A model generated the notes under the pieces. The model searched no databases and had not been told where the DNA came from. It saw only the letters and a list, made by a program, of their open reading frames with translations. Position numbers and translations under genes: made by a program. Below, piece after piece: positions 43,171 to 60,549 of a DNA stretch of 64,000 bases (within the stretch, counting starts at the first letter, position 1; each line of letters opens with the position of its first letter). This DNA comes from Promethearchaeota archaeon (GTDB taxonomy: Archaea; Asgardarchaeota; Lokiarchaeia; Sigyniarchaeales; SOKP01), in assembly GCA_016930515.1 (NCBI GenBank), contig JAFGGO010000085.1:8740-72739 (forward strand), read 5' to 3'.

Positions 43171-43188
43171 TATATTTAAAGAAAAAAA
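43171..43188 (-). promoter_or_regulatory. T7-C-TTTAAATATA promoter motif
   Basis: TATA ends about 30 bp before ATG 43142; the same motif precedes other cluster operons. Confidence 0.6.
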
Positions 43189-43305
43189 GGAAAAAATGGA
43201 AAAATGAAGTAAGGTGTTGAAATTTAGATAAAATTATACTCTTTTGAACTTAAGATAATACTATAAACAAAATCATCGATAGAAAAATTAATTAATCTGT
43301 AATAT

Positions 43306-45294
43306 TTAACGATTGAATTCTATATTATAATTTTCTGTCTCCATATATACTTTCACACCTGCGTCTTTTAAGGTGTCGAGAATTTTAAAAGATTCAATGT
43401 CACCTTGTTCGATAAAGGGGTTGTTTATCAACCACACTTCTTCGAGTGAATTTAAGGAAGAAAACGAATTGGGAAGCGATATCAAAAGGTTGTTATGCAG
43501 GTACAATTTTCGAAGAGATGAAAGGTTGCCAATCGATTCGGGTAGCGTTTCTAGGGCGTTATTTTGGAGGGAAAGGATTTCAAGAGATGAGAGGTTTCCA
43601 ATGGTTTCTGGTAGCTTTTTTAACCTGTTCCACGAGAGATTTAACTCTTCAAGGCTTGCAAGATTCCCAATTGAGTCAGGAAGTTCACTCAAGCGGTTAT
43701 CGTAAATTAGTAACTTTTTAAGTGAATTGAGTTTACCTATAGTTTCGGGTAAAGAAGTCAAGATATTTCTTTCCAGAGAAAGCCCTTGGAGCATTACAAG
43801 GTTTCCGATTGATGTTGGAAGCGTGGAGAGTTGATTGTCATGAATCCATATTTCTCTCACTAGTTCAAGATTTCCCATGGATTCAGGGAGTTTATGTAAT
43901 TGATTTGATTGGAGGAAAAGGAACCTGAGTGATGCGAGGTTTCCAATTGATTCAGGAAGTTCCCTTAATTTATTAGTGAATAACCACAGTTGTTGGAGTG
44001 AAGTGAGATTCCCAATAGTTTCTGGAAGATATTCTATTTCATTTTTTTGCAGGTATAATATTTTAAGGGATAAAAGATATCCAATTGATTCTGGAAGCTC
44101 CTTGAGCATGTTCGCTTCTAAATCTAAAGTGAGTAGGTTATGGATGTTTCCAATAGATTTTGGAACTCTCAATAACCGATTATTTGAGGCTAAAATAACT
44201 TGTAATGAAGTAAGATTAGAGATCGTCTCGGGAAATGATTCAAGTAAATTATTTGATATATAGATTTTTTCTAAGCAAGAAAGATCACCAAGAGACTCTG
44301 GAAGTTCCTTTAATAAATTATTTTGCAGATAAATCCTTTTAAGAGAGCTTGATTTGCCAATATTTTCTGGGAGCGAAGAAATCCTGTTAAATTGAGCCTC
44401 CAACGCTTGAAGCGAATAGAGTTTCTCAATATTGTTAGGCAAAGATTCGAGTTTATTATTACCTATTGACAAAGATTTTAACGAAGACAAGTTGCCAAGA
44501 GATTCTGGAAGGTAAATTAAATTATTTTCGCTAAGATCCAAGATTCGCAATTTTTCAAGGTTACCGAGAGAATCAGGAACTTCAATCAACTTATTACGCC
44601 TTATATTTAATTCTCTGAGCGTTTTAAGGTTGCCCATCCATTCAGGAAGCGTTTTTAATCGATTGTGTGTCAACCATAACTTTTTGATGGTAAGGTGATT
44701 TTTTAATCCCTTAAGAAGATTGAGATCGGTAATGTACTTTTGTCGAAGGTCTAAAATGTTCTTGACCGTGGGGATTGATTTGAAGTAATGTTGAATGGAT
44801 TTTGATACAACTTCGATTTCCTCCTCATTGAAATAGCTTAGATAAGCTTGCTCTAAAAGGTATTTAACAACCGAGGGATAACCACTCGATATTCGCTTGG
44901 CGATTTCATCTTTAAAGATCTTTTTAGCTAGGGGATCCCCAACTTCTGACAGTTTTTTAAGCAAGGGAAAAGAAAGATTGCTGTGAAGCAAACGCGTGTC
45001 GTAATTATTTTCATTCCAGGTTTGAAGGTTTGAACAATGTCCCCAGAATTCTTGAATTGGTGTAATATCGTGAATTCCCCCCTCGTATATTCGATTATTA
45101 TGTAAGGTTTTGAAAATTTCAGATGCTTGATCGATGGTATCTATTTGGTCGTATTCGGATGCTTGATCCTTAAAAATTTTCAGGACAAGTCTCATGCATT
45201 GTAAGAACTTTTCTCCGTTAATGTATATGAAAGTTTTATCGTCTTCAAGTCTTAGCTTTATGTAGGCATTGACCGTAAATTCCATGGAATCCAT
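43306..45294 (-). CDS. Leucine-rich repeat protein with Lokiarchaeia-type N-terminal domain
   Basis: About 19 repeats of 23 aa LPESIGNLxxLxxLxLxxNxL; N-domain EFWGHCSNLQ.W...YDTRLLHSNLSFPLLKKL. Confidence 0.92.
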   Translation of the reverse strand: MDSMEFTVNAYIKLRLEDDKTFIYINGEKFLQCMRLVLKIFKDQASEYDQIDTIDQASEIFKTLHNNRIYEGGIHDITPIQEFWGHCSNLQTWNENNYDTRLLHSNLSFPLLKKLSEVGDPLAKKIFKDEIAKRISSGYPSVVKYLLEQAYLSYFNEEEIEVVSKSIQHYFKSIPTVKNILDLRQKYITDLNLLKGLKNHLTIKKLWLTHNRLKTLPEWMGNLKTLRELNIRRNKLIEVPDSLGNLEKLRILDLSENNLIYLPESLGNLSSLKSLSIGNNKLESLPNNIEKLYSLQALEAQFNRISSLPENIGKSSSLKRIYLQNNLLKELPESLGDLSCLEKIYISNNLLESFPETISNLTSLQVILASNNRLLRVPKSIGNIHNLLTLDLEANMLKELPESIGYLLSLKILYLQKNEIEYLPETIGNLTSLQQLWLFTNKLRELPESIGNLASLRFLFLQSNQLHKLPESMGNLELVREIWIHDNQLSTLPTSIGNLVMLQGLSLERNILTSLPETIGKLNSLKKLLIYDNRLSELPDSIGNLASLEELNLSWNRLKKLPETIGNLSSLEILSLQNNALETLPESIGNLSSLRKLYLHNNLLISLPNSFSSLNSLEEVWLINNPFIEQGDIESFKILDTLKDAGVKVYMETENYNIEFNR

Positions 45295-45421
45295 CCTTAC
45301 CCAATTTTAAAATTAATGAACTTAATAATATTTAAATAATCCCTTAAAAGAAATTGCTATCGAATTTGCGTGTTCAATTCTTTAAAAATCTAATGGCAAT
45401 ATTGGTTCAAAAATATTTCTT

Positions 45422-45436
45422 TTTTTTGTTTATATA
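45422..45436 (+). promoter_or_regulatory. T-run-G-TTTATATA promoter variant
   Basis: In a divergent intergenic region, 54 bp before ATG 45491. Confidence 0.4.
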
Positions 45437-45490
45437 TACTGATAACACATACAAATCAATGTATTTATCAATAAAACGAGGTATTATAAA

Positions 45491-45802
45491 ATGGTAATAA
45501 CAGAAAAGAATCTTAAAGATATCGTAAAGTACAAGCAAAACACGAAAAATGCTCATAAATGCCCATTTTGTAAGAAAAAGATAGAAATTGGAATTGAATA
45601 TGAAATGTTGAGCAAGTTGAAAGAAGAAAACCGCTTTCCATACCCTCACGTGGTATTACACGGTAATCCTCTTCATGCAATGGTGTGCTATATAGATAGT
45701 AATTTAACTGTAAGAAATGTGAGCGTCATCAAGAGTGTTGAAATATCTCGCGATTCAGAAACATTTGCACAATTGATGAATAAATGGGCAAATCCGTATT
45801 AA
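45491..45802 (+). CDS. Small putative Zn-binding protein
   Basis: CPFC plus H.VLHG.PLH...YID.N..VR; 14 bp upstream of the helicase. Confidence 0.75.
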   Translation: MVITEKNLKDIVKYKQNTKNAHKCPFCKKKIEIGIEYEMLSKLKEENRFPYPHVVLHGNPLHAMVCYIDSNLTVRNVSVIKSVEISRDSETFAQLMNKWANPY

Positions 45803-59528: not shown

Positions 59529-59593
59529 AATTATTTTTACAAATTCTAATAAGAGAAATAATTGGGGGTGTACGCCTTTTAAAGTTTATGATT

Positions 59594-59803
59594 AGGATCG
59601 AAATCCTTACTTAAAACGGCCCTATTCCGTTTTTTCAATTTTGTAAATTCGTAAAAAAAGAAGAAAAGTGCATTTTTCTGATCACTTGTTGAAAAGTGAC
59701 CCCAGAAATGTAGTAGATCAGGCTCTTGCCGCTAGTAGAAGTAACCAGATTAGCTATGGATTCTACTTAATAAACGTATCAATGGAAGAGGCAAATTTAC
59801 TAC
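59594..59803. ncRNA. Candidate structured RNA (long 5' leader of the TFB paralog or antisense RNA)
   Basis: Four stem-loop systems including a nested multi-stem, and a UUCG tetraloop on the minus strand. Confidence 0.4.
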
Positions 59804-60179
59804 TCTTTGGGAAAAGTTGATCAATAGTTGCAAAAGTGAAATGGATTATCAAATAGTATAAAAAACTTTTTTTTTTACACAATTTTATGAAAGTAGCAAG
59901 GTTTTAAATAAATATTTTTAAATCTTCAAGCAAATGGGAAGTCTAAATTTTCCCACGCTATATCTAAAAAAATAATAAACACAAAAGACATGATAAAATT
60001 AATTAAAATATATTTAATGATATTTACAGCAATTATAACATTCAGGATGATTCAAGAACCAATTAAAAAATAGAAAAATACATCCTTTCTAAATTTATTA
60101 ATTTAAAATTGTAAAGAATCTCTATTTTCATTGAAAACCTCGCTAAGGACCTTAATAAAGTAGAAATAGGTATTTCTAT

Positions 60180-60452
60180 CTATTTCTTCCAGTTCCACCA
60201 TTTTAACAACAATGGATCGTGAACCTGATTAGATGCAAAATAAACCGCACACCTGCAAACATATAATAGGCACTTATCAATGGACTTTTCTTGATGGTTG
60301 CAAATTTTCTCGTATAAAAGCTCGGGATTTTCACCCTTTAAGTGGTTTATCGAGGTGATGTTGACATTCCAAAAACTTTCGGCTATTTTCTTTCCAACGC
60401 CTGGTATTTTGGATAATTCCTGAATGCTTTTTATTTTATCCATATCAATCAA
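60180..60452 (-). CDS. Helix-hairpin-helix protein, Cdd1/pathogenicity-locus family
   Basis: IPGVGK.IA, L.GENPE.LY, D.C.LYV.RCAV, WWNWK. Confidence 0.85.
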   Translation of the reverse strand: MIDMDKIKSIQELSKIPGVGKKIAESFWNVNITSINHLKGENPELLYEKICNHQEKSIDKCLLYVCRCAVYFASNQVHDPLLLKWWNWKK

Positions 60453-60532
60453 TATTATTTTATATAAATCAAGAAAGTTATTTTTATAAAATTATAGTGT
60501 TCAATGAATTATTAAACACCTATAGTTCTCGA

Positions 60533-60549
60533 TTTTTCTTTTAAATATA
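60533..60549 (+). promoter_or_regulatory. T5-C-TTTTAAATATA promoter motif
   Basis: TATA ends 24 bp before ATG 60572; divergent intergenic region. Confidence 0.6.

Follow-up and report, generated by a model that had tools for sequence, protein, structure and literature searches.

A T-tract at the BRE position marks the promoters of a conserved gene island in Loki-type Asgard archaea, with a neighbouring TFB paralogue as its candidate reader

Introduction

What selects a set of archaeal promoters that keep an ordinary TATA box and carry a run of thymines where transcription factor B (TFB) would normally read a purine-rich B recognition element (BRE)? The question is raised by a 64-kb stretch of DNA from a Promethearchaeota archaeon, referred to here as the window, which is the last 64 kb of contig C137 in a 4.0-Mb assembly of 190 contigs and 35% GC (genome G000; other G-numbers denote comparison genomes). 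Homologues of its proteins bear Promethearchaeota and Lokiarchaeia names, which marks the source as a Loki-type Asgard archaeon. An earlier sequence-only reading of the window had proposed that a cluster of operons in its right-hand part shares a non-canonical promoter motif and forms a putative alternative-TFB regulon. Here we describe this element, with the consensus A-T6-C-TTTAWATA, and argue from comparative sequence analysis that one family of Loki-type Asgard archaea uses it as the core promoter throughout a conserved chromosomal island. We also weigh the candidacy of a divergent TFB paralogue, encoded within the island, as the protein that reads it. To our knowledge, gene control in Asgard archaea is almost unstudied, and we know of no clearly distinct BRE that has so far been tied to a particular TFB paralogue, even though such paralogues divide labour in other archaea. 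Our literature search for Asgard promoter classes or for this gene island found no description of either.

Results

The element is concentrated at one locus

The seven copies of the motif listed by the sequence-only reading are all present and read as it had given them. They are set out below with scores in bits from a 19-column matrix, which was trained solely on 18 promoters of homologues of the 1006-aa gene from other genera and genomes and then run over G000. Transcription starts here and throughout are sequence-predicted, placed by a fixed spacing from the TATA box.

43170..43188, minus strand: predicted promoter T7-C-TTTAAATA, 20.8 bits, driving the operon 43142-34764; predicted start near 43151
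45421..45439, plus strand: predicted promoter T8-G-TTTATATA, 19.1 bits, in a divergent region, driving 45491-48336; predicted start near 45458
48395..48413, plus strand: predicted promoter T7-C-TTTATATG, 18.9 bits, driving a 100-aa open reading frame (ORF); predicted start near 48432, where T-A-A is found
52179..52197, minus strand: predicted promoter T7-C-TTTAAATA, 20.2 bits, driving 52162-48823; predicted start on the start codon
55344..55362, minus strand: predicted promoter T6-C-TTTAAATG, 19.2 bits, driving the 1006-aa gene; predicted start near 55325
55401..55419, minus strand: second, weaker copy T6-C-TTTAAACA, 13.8 bits, 57 nt upstream of the first 55.36-kb copy; function uncertain
60532..60550, plus strand: predicted promoter A-T5-C-TTTTAAATA, 20.1 bits, in a divergent region, driving 60572-62400; predicted start 60569, 3 nt before the ATG

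The accompanying proposal that the TATA-like part ends 20-55 bp before a start codon needs one amendment. The copy at 55361-55347 overlaps the first ATG (55349) of the longest ORF, and the stated distance is recovered there only if a downstream start, such as the GTG at 55313, is used. Because the predicted transcription start near 55325 requires a downstream start codon, the true start of the 1006-aa gene is probably 3' of ATG 55349.

The exact string T5+CTTTAAA occurs 44 times in the genome, with 22 copies inside genes, mostly antisense to lysine-rich codons, and ten in promoter-like positions. Four of these ten lie between 43.1 and 55.4 kb of the window and none in its first 43 kb. A non-simple exact 13-mer with four copies within 13 kb is found at 15 loci genome-wide; most of these (on C95 and C89, for example) are repeat loci with multiple k-mers, and the motif is one of three isolated cases. 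The matrix, which owes nothing to G000, finds 29 sites of at least 18 bits in this genome, six of them sites of the sequence-only reading and seven more at C116:18.5-31.3 kb. Thus 13 of the 29 best sites fall within 31 kb (43-61 kb of the window plus the end of C116), compared with about 0.2 expected, and since this placement comes from an independent matrix the clustering is not due to chance.

As to the other repeat loci, C95 and C89 carry regularly spaced 13-mers, in up to 54 and 26 copies respectively, that resemble CRISPR arrays, and C66 and C111 contain tandem repeats within coding sequence. Rfam and tRNA scans of the 64-kb window gave no match.

The TATA box is ordinary and the prefix is not

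The general promoter of this genome was defined from 240 TTTAWATA boxes that are not part of the C137 and C116 clusters and have a start codon at a distance of 18-70 nt. Two other references were dropped: tRNA promoters as a standard for the canonical BRE, as ARAGORN returned only 12 tRNAs and their upstream regions had no clean consensus, and simple hexamer flank profiles, which were too noisy. The sequence TTTAAATA(C) is the most strand-asymmetric 8/9-mer of G000 upstream regions, and the TATA part of the motif is therefore the genome's ordinary box. General promoters are A-rich at the BRE positions, with A in 43-52% at -7, -5, -3 and -1, and C in 25% at -8. Only 10 of the 240 have T at five or more of the six positions from -7 to -2, and none combines this with C at -1. 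With an ordinary TATA box in both classes, it is the T6C prefix that is unusual.

The geometry of the island promoters was examined on 106 sites from relatives. In these, A occupies -8 in 58%, T occupies -7 to -2 in 82-100% and C occupies -1 in 73%, followed by an invariant TTTAWATA. The position expected to hold a purine-rich BRE is indeed taken by a pyrimidine run, as had been claimed, and T6C fills exactly the 7-8 bp directly upstream of the TATA box. Further downstream lie signals that the matrix could not have selected, as its columns exclude positions +13 and +28 to +30. A purine is found at +13 in 89% of sites. Where at least 36 nt separate the TATA box from the start codon, +28 is T in 64%, and A occupies +29 and +30 in 89% and 75% respectively; among matrix matches inside genes, which served as the control, A at +29 reaches only 34%. 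Counted from the first T of the TATA box, the initiator A is 29 nt downstream, as is classical for archaeal initiators. Such a signal, at a constant distance and outside the matrix, argues that these sites are working promoters reading towards the genes. Measured against the usual description of an archaeal core promoter, they have the TATA box of about 8 bp, centred some 26 nt before the predicted transcription start, and a sequence-inferred pyrimidine-purine initiator, and they lack the purine- or A-rich BRE.

Distances from TATA box to start codon cluster at 18-27 nt, corresponding to leaderless transcripts, and at 36-54 nt. Within the window, the predicted starts of the 191-aa operon (52156-52162) and the M50-like operon (60569-60574) lie 0-5 nt from their start codons, so that these messages are probably leaderless or nearly so, and the Hel308 and 100-aa units have predicted leaders of about 30 nt.

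Archaeal transcription terminates at oligo-T, and a co-directional gene ends 43-131 nt upstream of four of the seven copies in the window. The T-runs might accordingly be terminators of upstream genes that happen to abut ordinary TATA boxes, the motif being a by-product of tight packing, and the sequence-only reading had itself warned that some copies could double in this way. The copies at 45.4 and 60.5 kb do lie in divergent regions, as it had noted, where no transcript would be expected to end, and many copies in relatives are similarly placed, often as back-to-back pairs. Moreover, the upstream stop codons have T9-T10 runs of their own right behind them, the motif is not seen at tandem genes elsewhere, and neither a fixed register with the TATA box, nor a conserved C, nor an initiator at +29 would be expected of terminators. 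The sequence data contradict the idea that the T-tract is primarily a terminator, and we consider it hardly credible.

The motif is conserved at orthologous promoters

The transcription units assigned to the motif in the window, together with two genes that serve as internal controls, are as follows.

34764..43142, minus strand: operon HhH membrane protein / 245 aa / 298 aa / VirB4-like / 112 aa / YdjM-like, delimited from ORFs, Pfam and the gene order of relatives
41103-43142, minus strand: HhH membrane protein
40358-41095, minus strand: 245-aa protein
39459-40355, minus strand: 298-aa protein
35599-39549, minus strand: VirB4-like protein
35247-35585, minus strand: 112-aa protein
34764-35243, minus strand: YdjM-like protein
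45491..48336, plus strand: 103-aa protein and Hel308-like helicase (Pfam DEAD, Helicase_C and Helicase_dom4_arc; island orthologues 50-61% identical)
48462-48764, plus strand: 100-aa ORF, target of the 48395 promoter
48823..52162, minus strand: operon 191 aa / Hef-like helicase / DUF5817 (Pfam, synteny)
51587-52162, minus strand: 191-aa protein
49335-51587, minus strand: Hef-like helicase
48823-49338, minus strand: DUF5817 protein
52329..55349, minus strand: 1006-aa protein with an N-terminal alpha/alpha-toroid (prenyltransferase-like) domain (Pfam PF00432)
60572..62400, plus strand: operon M50B-like membrane protein / 118-aa membrane protein / RadB/KaiC-like ATPase (Pfam, synteny)
43306..45294, minus strand: leucine-rich repeat (LRR) protein gene (Pfam), internal negative control
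55462..58188, minus strand: 908-aa gene between the TFB-like and 1006-aa genes, no Pfam match

Nineteen other genomes supplied homologues of the 1006-aa protein, and all 18 with a readable 5' flank have T5-7-N-TTTAWAWA upstream of the start. The result is the same for a RadA paralogue encoded on C116, where the motif precedes all 24 family orthologues with a readable start and 5' flank, at 14.5-22.8 bits and 35-100 nt upstream. It is also found 15-59 nt upstream of the HhH-membrane orthologues in G018, G015, G030, G006 and G029, at the orthologous 103-aa/Hel308 units in G006, G028 and G029, and 3-33 nt upstream of the M50-like orthologues in G007, G018, G031 and G015. The 191-aa/Hef/DUF5817 unit has a separate motif in G061 and G007; in most relatives it comes after the 1006-aa gene and has none. 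No homologue of the 100-aa ORF was seen in the islands of relatives. Of five relatives searched across the whole genome, four have T5-C-TTTAWATA 1.5-4 times as often as the reversed control, and in one relative 6 of its 15 copies lie inside the island.

Specificity is apparent from several controls. In the window, the LRR gene has no T-tract and no site of at least 12 bits upstream, and the 908-aa gene has no motif site upstream and no homologue in the islands of nine relatives. Because both genes sit in the island here and not in the island of relatives, they look like lineage-specific, later insertions. Other paralogues of the Rad51 family, 40% identical, score at most 9.8 bits upstream. Of the scattered high-scoring sites elsewhere in G000 (before MaoC, TldD, ACS-type ATP-grasp, GatC and aminotransferase genes), MaoC is the sole one that was followed into other genomes: its promoter scores 20.1 bits in G000 and at most 9.8 bits in 13 homologues. 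Given that the MaoC site is not kept, we read the scattered matches as sporadic and did not count them as regulon members.

The proposal of a shared non-canonical promoter motif marking the operons of the cluster is thereby upheld: the motif is conserved across 12 genera, absent from control promoters, placed exactly at the BRE position and followed by an initiator at fixed spacing, and it is not equally frequent upstream of unrelated genes. At the level of sequence, we regard the promoter class and its island-wide, family-wide conservation as established.

The same data bear on the possibility that the T-tract acts through its structure rather than being read, as a rigid, narrow-groove A-tract that favours bending by the TATA-binding protein (TBP) or excludes histones, making strong or constitutive promoters that any TFB could use. 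A-tracts are intrinsically stiff and exclude nucleosomes in eukaryotic promoters, about a quarter of the sites have A, G or T at -1, and sporadic T-tract TATA boxes do precede unrelated genes. A purely structural role does not readily account for the confinement of the element to one island, for its scarcity among general promoters, for the conservation of both the register and the C at -1 across genera, or for the absence from orthologues of a sporadic match outside the island. We therefore consider it improbable that the T-tract is a structural feature alone.

The window holds part of a larger island

In nine relatives from eight genera, the gene sets found on C116 and C137 form a single contiguous island of about 35-40 kb. 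Its order begins with NYN-GTPase-182aa / OB-197aa / FEN / 126aa / 73aa / Zn105-334aa / RadA paralogue and continues with M50-118aa-RadB-like / TFB-like / 1006aa-191aa-Hef-DUF5817 / 103aa-Hel308 / HhH-membrane-245-298-VirB4-like. C116 codes for the RadA paralogue, with a C-terminal HhH, and for a FEN1/XPG-like nuclease, an OB-fold protein, a Zn-ribbon protein, a small GTPase and an NYN RNase. A same-genus contig runs from RadB-like through a 98-aa gene to the RadA paralogue, and together with the joined synteny in the nine other relatives this indicates that the right end of the window (61672-64000, the contig end) continues directly into the end of C116 (C116:30002-32179), the assembly having split the island. 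In the regions mapped in relatives, sites of at least 18 bits number 5-15 per 23-60 kb and head nearly every transcription unit. The regulon suggested by these data comprises about 13 transcription units; the sequence-only reading was right that the motif is shared within the window and underestimated the extent of the regulon, which carries on into C116.

The island RadA paralogue (G000:C116:30002-31237) has its HhH at the C-terminus and not the N-terminus, is 56-84% identical across two families and is the third Rad51-family copy of the genome; the other two, about 41% identical, are on C161 and C83. In two relatives, exact motif copies cluster at extra loci for 1006-aa or TFB-like paralogues (G015, on C63, C75, C76 and C87; G028, on C6 and C7), and the regulon may extend beyond the main island in relatives that have several such paralogues.

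A divergent TFB paralogue is the candidate reader

Between the M50-like operon and the 1006-aa gene lies a further gene whose product is, by its predicted fold, a TFB.

58572..59528, minus strand: TFB-like paralogue, 318 aa, candidate T-tract reader (Zn-ribbon hit below the Pfam cut-off, profile and fold matches)

The 318-aa protein scores 22.4 bits with the Zn-ribbon family PF08271, under the cut-off of 29, and has no match to PF00382; it is not among the 18 PF00382 matches of the genome and is thus a very divergent member. A single-sequence search of the PDB returned nothing significant. More sensitive comparisons are consistent with one another: a family profile search of the PDB found TFIIB and Pyrococcus TFB chains (1pft at E 0.03), hhalign of the family profile against nine canonical G000 TFBs gave 98% probability and E 1.7e-13 over 259 columns, and a Foldseek search with an AlphaFold2 (AF2) model (mean per-residue confidence, pLDDT, 80) matched 1d3u_B with a template-modelling (TM) score of 0.80 and a root-mean-square deviation (rmsd) of 3.4, as well as full-length TFIIB chains of pre-initiation complexes with probability 1.0. 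The four Zn-ribbon cysteines (C23, C26, C40 and C43) are invariant in 30 homologues. The modelled protein has the TFB/TFIIB fold at full length, with a Zn ribbon and two cyclin folds. Its helix that aligns with the BRE-recognition helix reads MSTIQSQVKK, as against the canonical TEVTIRNRYK, and is nearly invariant across the genera of the family.

The protein belongs to a family with more than 346 members in Loki-type metagenome-assembled genomes, and at E 1e-20 or better the gene is found in 25 of the 36 genomes of the archaeal family and in none of 25 outside it. Its place is mid-island in every genome. In six of nine mapped relatives it is flanked by the M50/RadB-like operon and the 1006-aa gene, and in most genomes searched its immediate neighbour is the 1006-aa gene or the RadA paralogue; 1006-aa homologues, in turn, are present in 28 of the 36 family genomes, adjoining the TFB-like gene. 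Among the island proteins scanned, no other transcription factor or DNA-binding regulator was recognised. The promoter of the TFB-like gene has no motif, scoring at most 10.3 bits in 29 orthologues, the one exception in the family being a short paralogue in genus g8 that has it. Apart from this case, then, the factor does not appear to be auto-regulated.

A second short TFB-like paralogue of 316 aa, 51% identical, is encoded at G000:C58:39539-40468, adjoining a 1063-aa LRR protein, with few motif sites nearby. We considered C58 as a third cluster and rejected it, because it has only three sites of at least 14 bits and shares only LRR- and NYN-type genes with the island. The nine canonical two-cyclin TFB genes of G000 are on C31, C48, C127, C57, C58, C89, C92, C87 and C28, and the two divergent TFB-like genes come in addition to these.

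If the changed helix reads the T-tract, the two might be expected to vary together. In genus g8 the helix is MSTINYQVKN, and 6 of 12 sites have A instead of C at -1. In the sister family f2, five of seven RadA-paralogue promoters do not have the family motif, a CGA-type or other spacer stands between T-run and TATA box at its island promoters, and one complete genome encodes a 27%-identical TFB-like protein 12 kb from the RadA paralogue with the helix TASTVYSHIKN. We take this covariation as a weak lead and not as proof. Two complete sister-family genomes (G050:C1:1715001-1775000 and G055:C1:5590001-5650000) hold a related island in rearranged form, with T3-5-CGA(C)-TTTWATAAA-like elements in G055 and longer T-runs with G, GC or longer spacers in G050.

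The strongest competing explanation is that T6C is the operator of a dedicated regulator other than a TFB, either an activator bound just upstream of the TATA box, as with TFB-RF1 or Ptr2, or a repressor that blocks TFB, with a general TFB initiating and the TFB-like gene a mere member of the island. Such an arrangement has a precedent in the Sulfolobales, whose DNA-damage promoters use Orc1-2 on a short ANTTTC element near the core promoter (PMC6061795). It would also fit the sister-family islands, which keep a T-run close to the TATA box even where the TFB-like protein has only 27% identity or none was found, and a 197-aa island protein does give a faint helix-turn-helix match (E 0.02-0.04). 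Set against this, the element abuts the TATA box without a spacer and fills the BRE position exactly, so that a separate protein would compete with any TFB; the island proteins scanned include no classical regulator domain; and the sole transcription factor of the island is a TFB paralogue whose divergent helix is the very one that reads the BRE. We consider a non-TFB operator unlikely, albeit the alternative to be taken most seriously.

Discussion

The explanation that we favour for the T-tract promoters is as follows. Each unit would be headed by A-T6-C joined directly to an ordinary TTTAWATA, with the T-tract taking the 7-8 bp normally read by TFB as a purine-rich BRE, and transcription would begin at a T-A-A initiator, 29 nt on from the first T of that box, giving leaderless messages or leaders of 20-30 nt. 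The TFB paralogue at 58572-59528, itself made from an ordinary promoter, would bind TBP on these TATA boxes, read the T-tract with its changed helix-turn-helix and so switch on the whole set as one programme, comprising a second recombinase set, helicases, nucleases and a VirB4-like membrane operon for DNA handling. Its behaviour would be akin to that of a bacterial alternative sigma factor. The inducing signal can be guessed from the gene content to be DNA damage or DNA exchange.

Several observations weigh against this explanation. What ties the TFB-like protein to the T-tract is guilt by association, and the covariation described above involves only two lineages. G000 has nine canonical TFBs, any of which might serve T6C promoters, and its copy of the TFB-like protein lacks a C-terminal extension of about 100 aa found in most orthologues, same-genus ones included, with no remnant downstream. 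Outside the island, G000 has about a dozen further sites with high scores, which precede unrelated genes of metabolism. A sister-family genome, G049, has the motif at its RadA-paralogue promoter and a 1006-aa homologue, yet the TFB relatives found in this assembly, which is 80% complete, are only 21-26% identical. Finally, three genomes (G036, G033 and G003) have motif promoters and no TFB-like gene in the assembly; we do not regard these as true counterexamples, since their island contigs end or fall short before the position where the gene would be expected.

On balance, we think it probable that the T6C element is the core promoter class of the island and is read by the island's TFB paralogue acting as a sigma-like factor. 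The narrower identification of the paralogue as the reader of the T-tract is the best explanation available, and we lean towards it slightly. The alternative-TFB regulon proposed by the sequence-only reading thus gains a neighbouring TFB-fold protein with a changed helix, the sole recognisable transcription factor of the island; its central premise, binding of the T-tract, is plausible on circumstantial grounds. The most far-reaching version is one that we advance with slightly more doubt than belief. It holds that a lineage of Asgard archaea has a true second promoter code, in which a full-length TFIIB-family factor with a non-canonical DNA-reading helix recognises a T-tract BRE. That factor would be the master switch of an entire reserve programme for exchanging and recombining DNA, made up of the VirB4-derived membrane machine, Hel308, Hef, the RadA paralogue and proteins resembling RadB, RPA and FEN1.

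Whichever protein reads it, the motif appears to mark a co-regulated second set of recombination genes together with a VirB4-like membrane operon, which may serve a damage response, DNA uptake or DNA exchange. The TFB paralogue, the element and the target set of about 13 units are all defined in sequence and conserved over the whole family, and sigma-like promoter choice by a TFIIB-family factor can therefore be tested directly with three proteins and one DNA fragment. If the explanation holds, this would be the first case in which factor, element and regulon can all be read from sequence, and it would come from the closest known relatives of eukaryotes.

In function, the TFB3/Orc1-2 DNA-damage regulon of the Sulfolobales, with its Ups pili and Ced DNA importer, comes closest. 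There, too, genes for DNA exchange and repair, including a membrane DNA machine of the VirB4/HerA type, are marked by a TFB paralogue and by a short element common to their promoters, within about 55 nt of the start codon. TFB3 is a truncated TFB without the DNA-binding core that acts together with TFB1, whereas the island paralogue is predicted to be full length, with changes in the residues of the BRE-reading helix. The ANTTTC element is bound by Orc1-2 and not by a TFB (PMC6061795), in contrast to the island element, which replaces the BRE itself.

Compared with the canonical core promoter, as represented by Pyrococcus TBP and TFB on BRE plus TATA (1d3u), the island promoters have the same general type of 8-bp TATA box, an initiator about 21 nt downstream and a 7-8 bp element directly upstream. 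They differ in having T6C rather than an A- or purine-rich sequence at the BRE position, and the candidate factor differs in its recognition helix and in missing the Pfam cut-offs for TFIIB. The TFB2 cell-cycle regulon of Sulfolobus and the multiple-TFB regulons of Halobacterium likewise have TFB paralogues that drive distinct gene sets in a sigma-like manner. At Sulfolobus TFB2 promoters, BRE and TATA resemble those of TFB1 promoters and spacing alone differs (bioRxiv 10.64898/2026.09.06.749720), whereas the promoters described here have a BRE-position sequence of a categorically different kind, and their target genes sit together with the gene for the candidate factor in a single island. There is also a likeness in logic to bacterial alternative sigma factors of the extracytoplasmic function (ECF) type with a linked regulon: the island would similarly encode a dedicated initiation factor beside its targets and equip those targets with a private promoter element, using proteins and a polymerase machinery that are unrelated to the bacterial ones.

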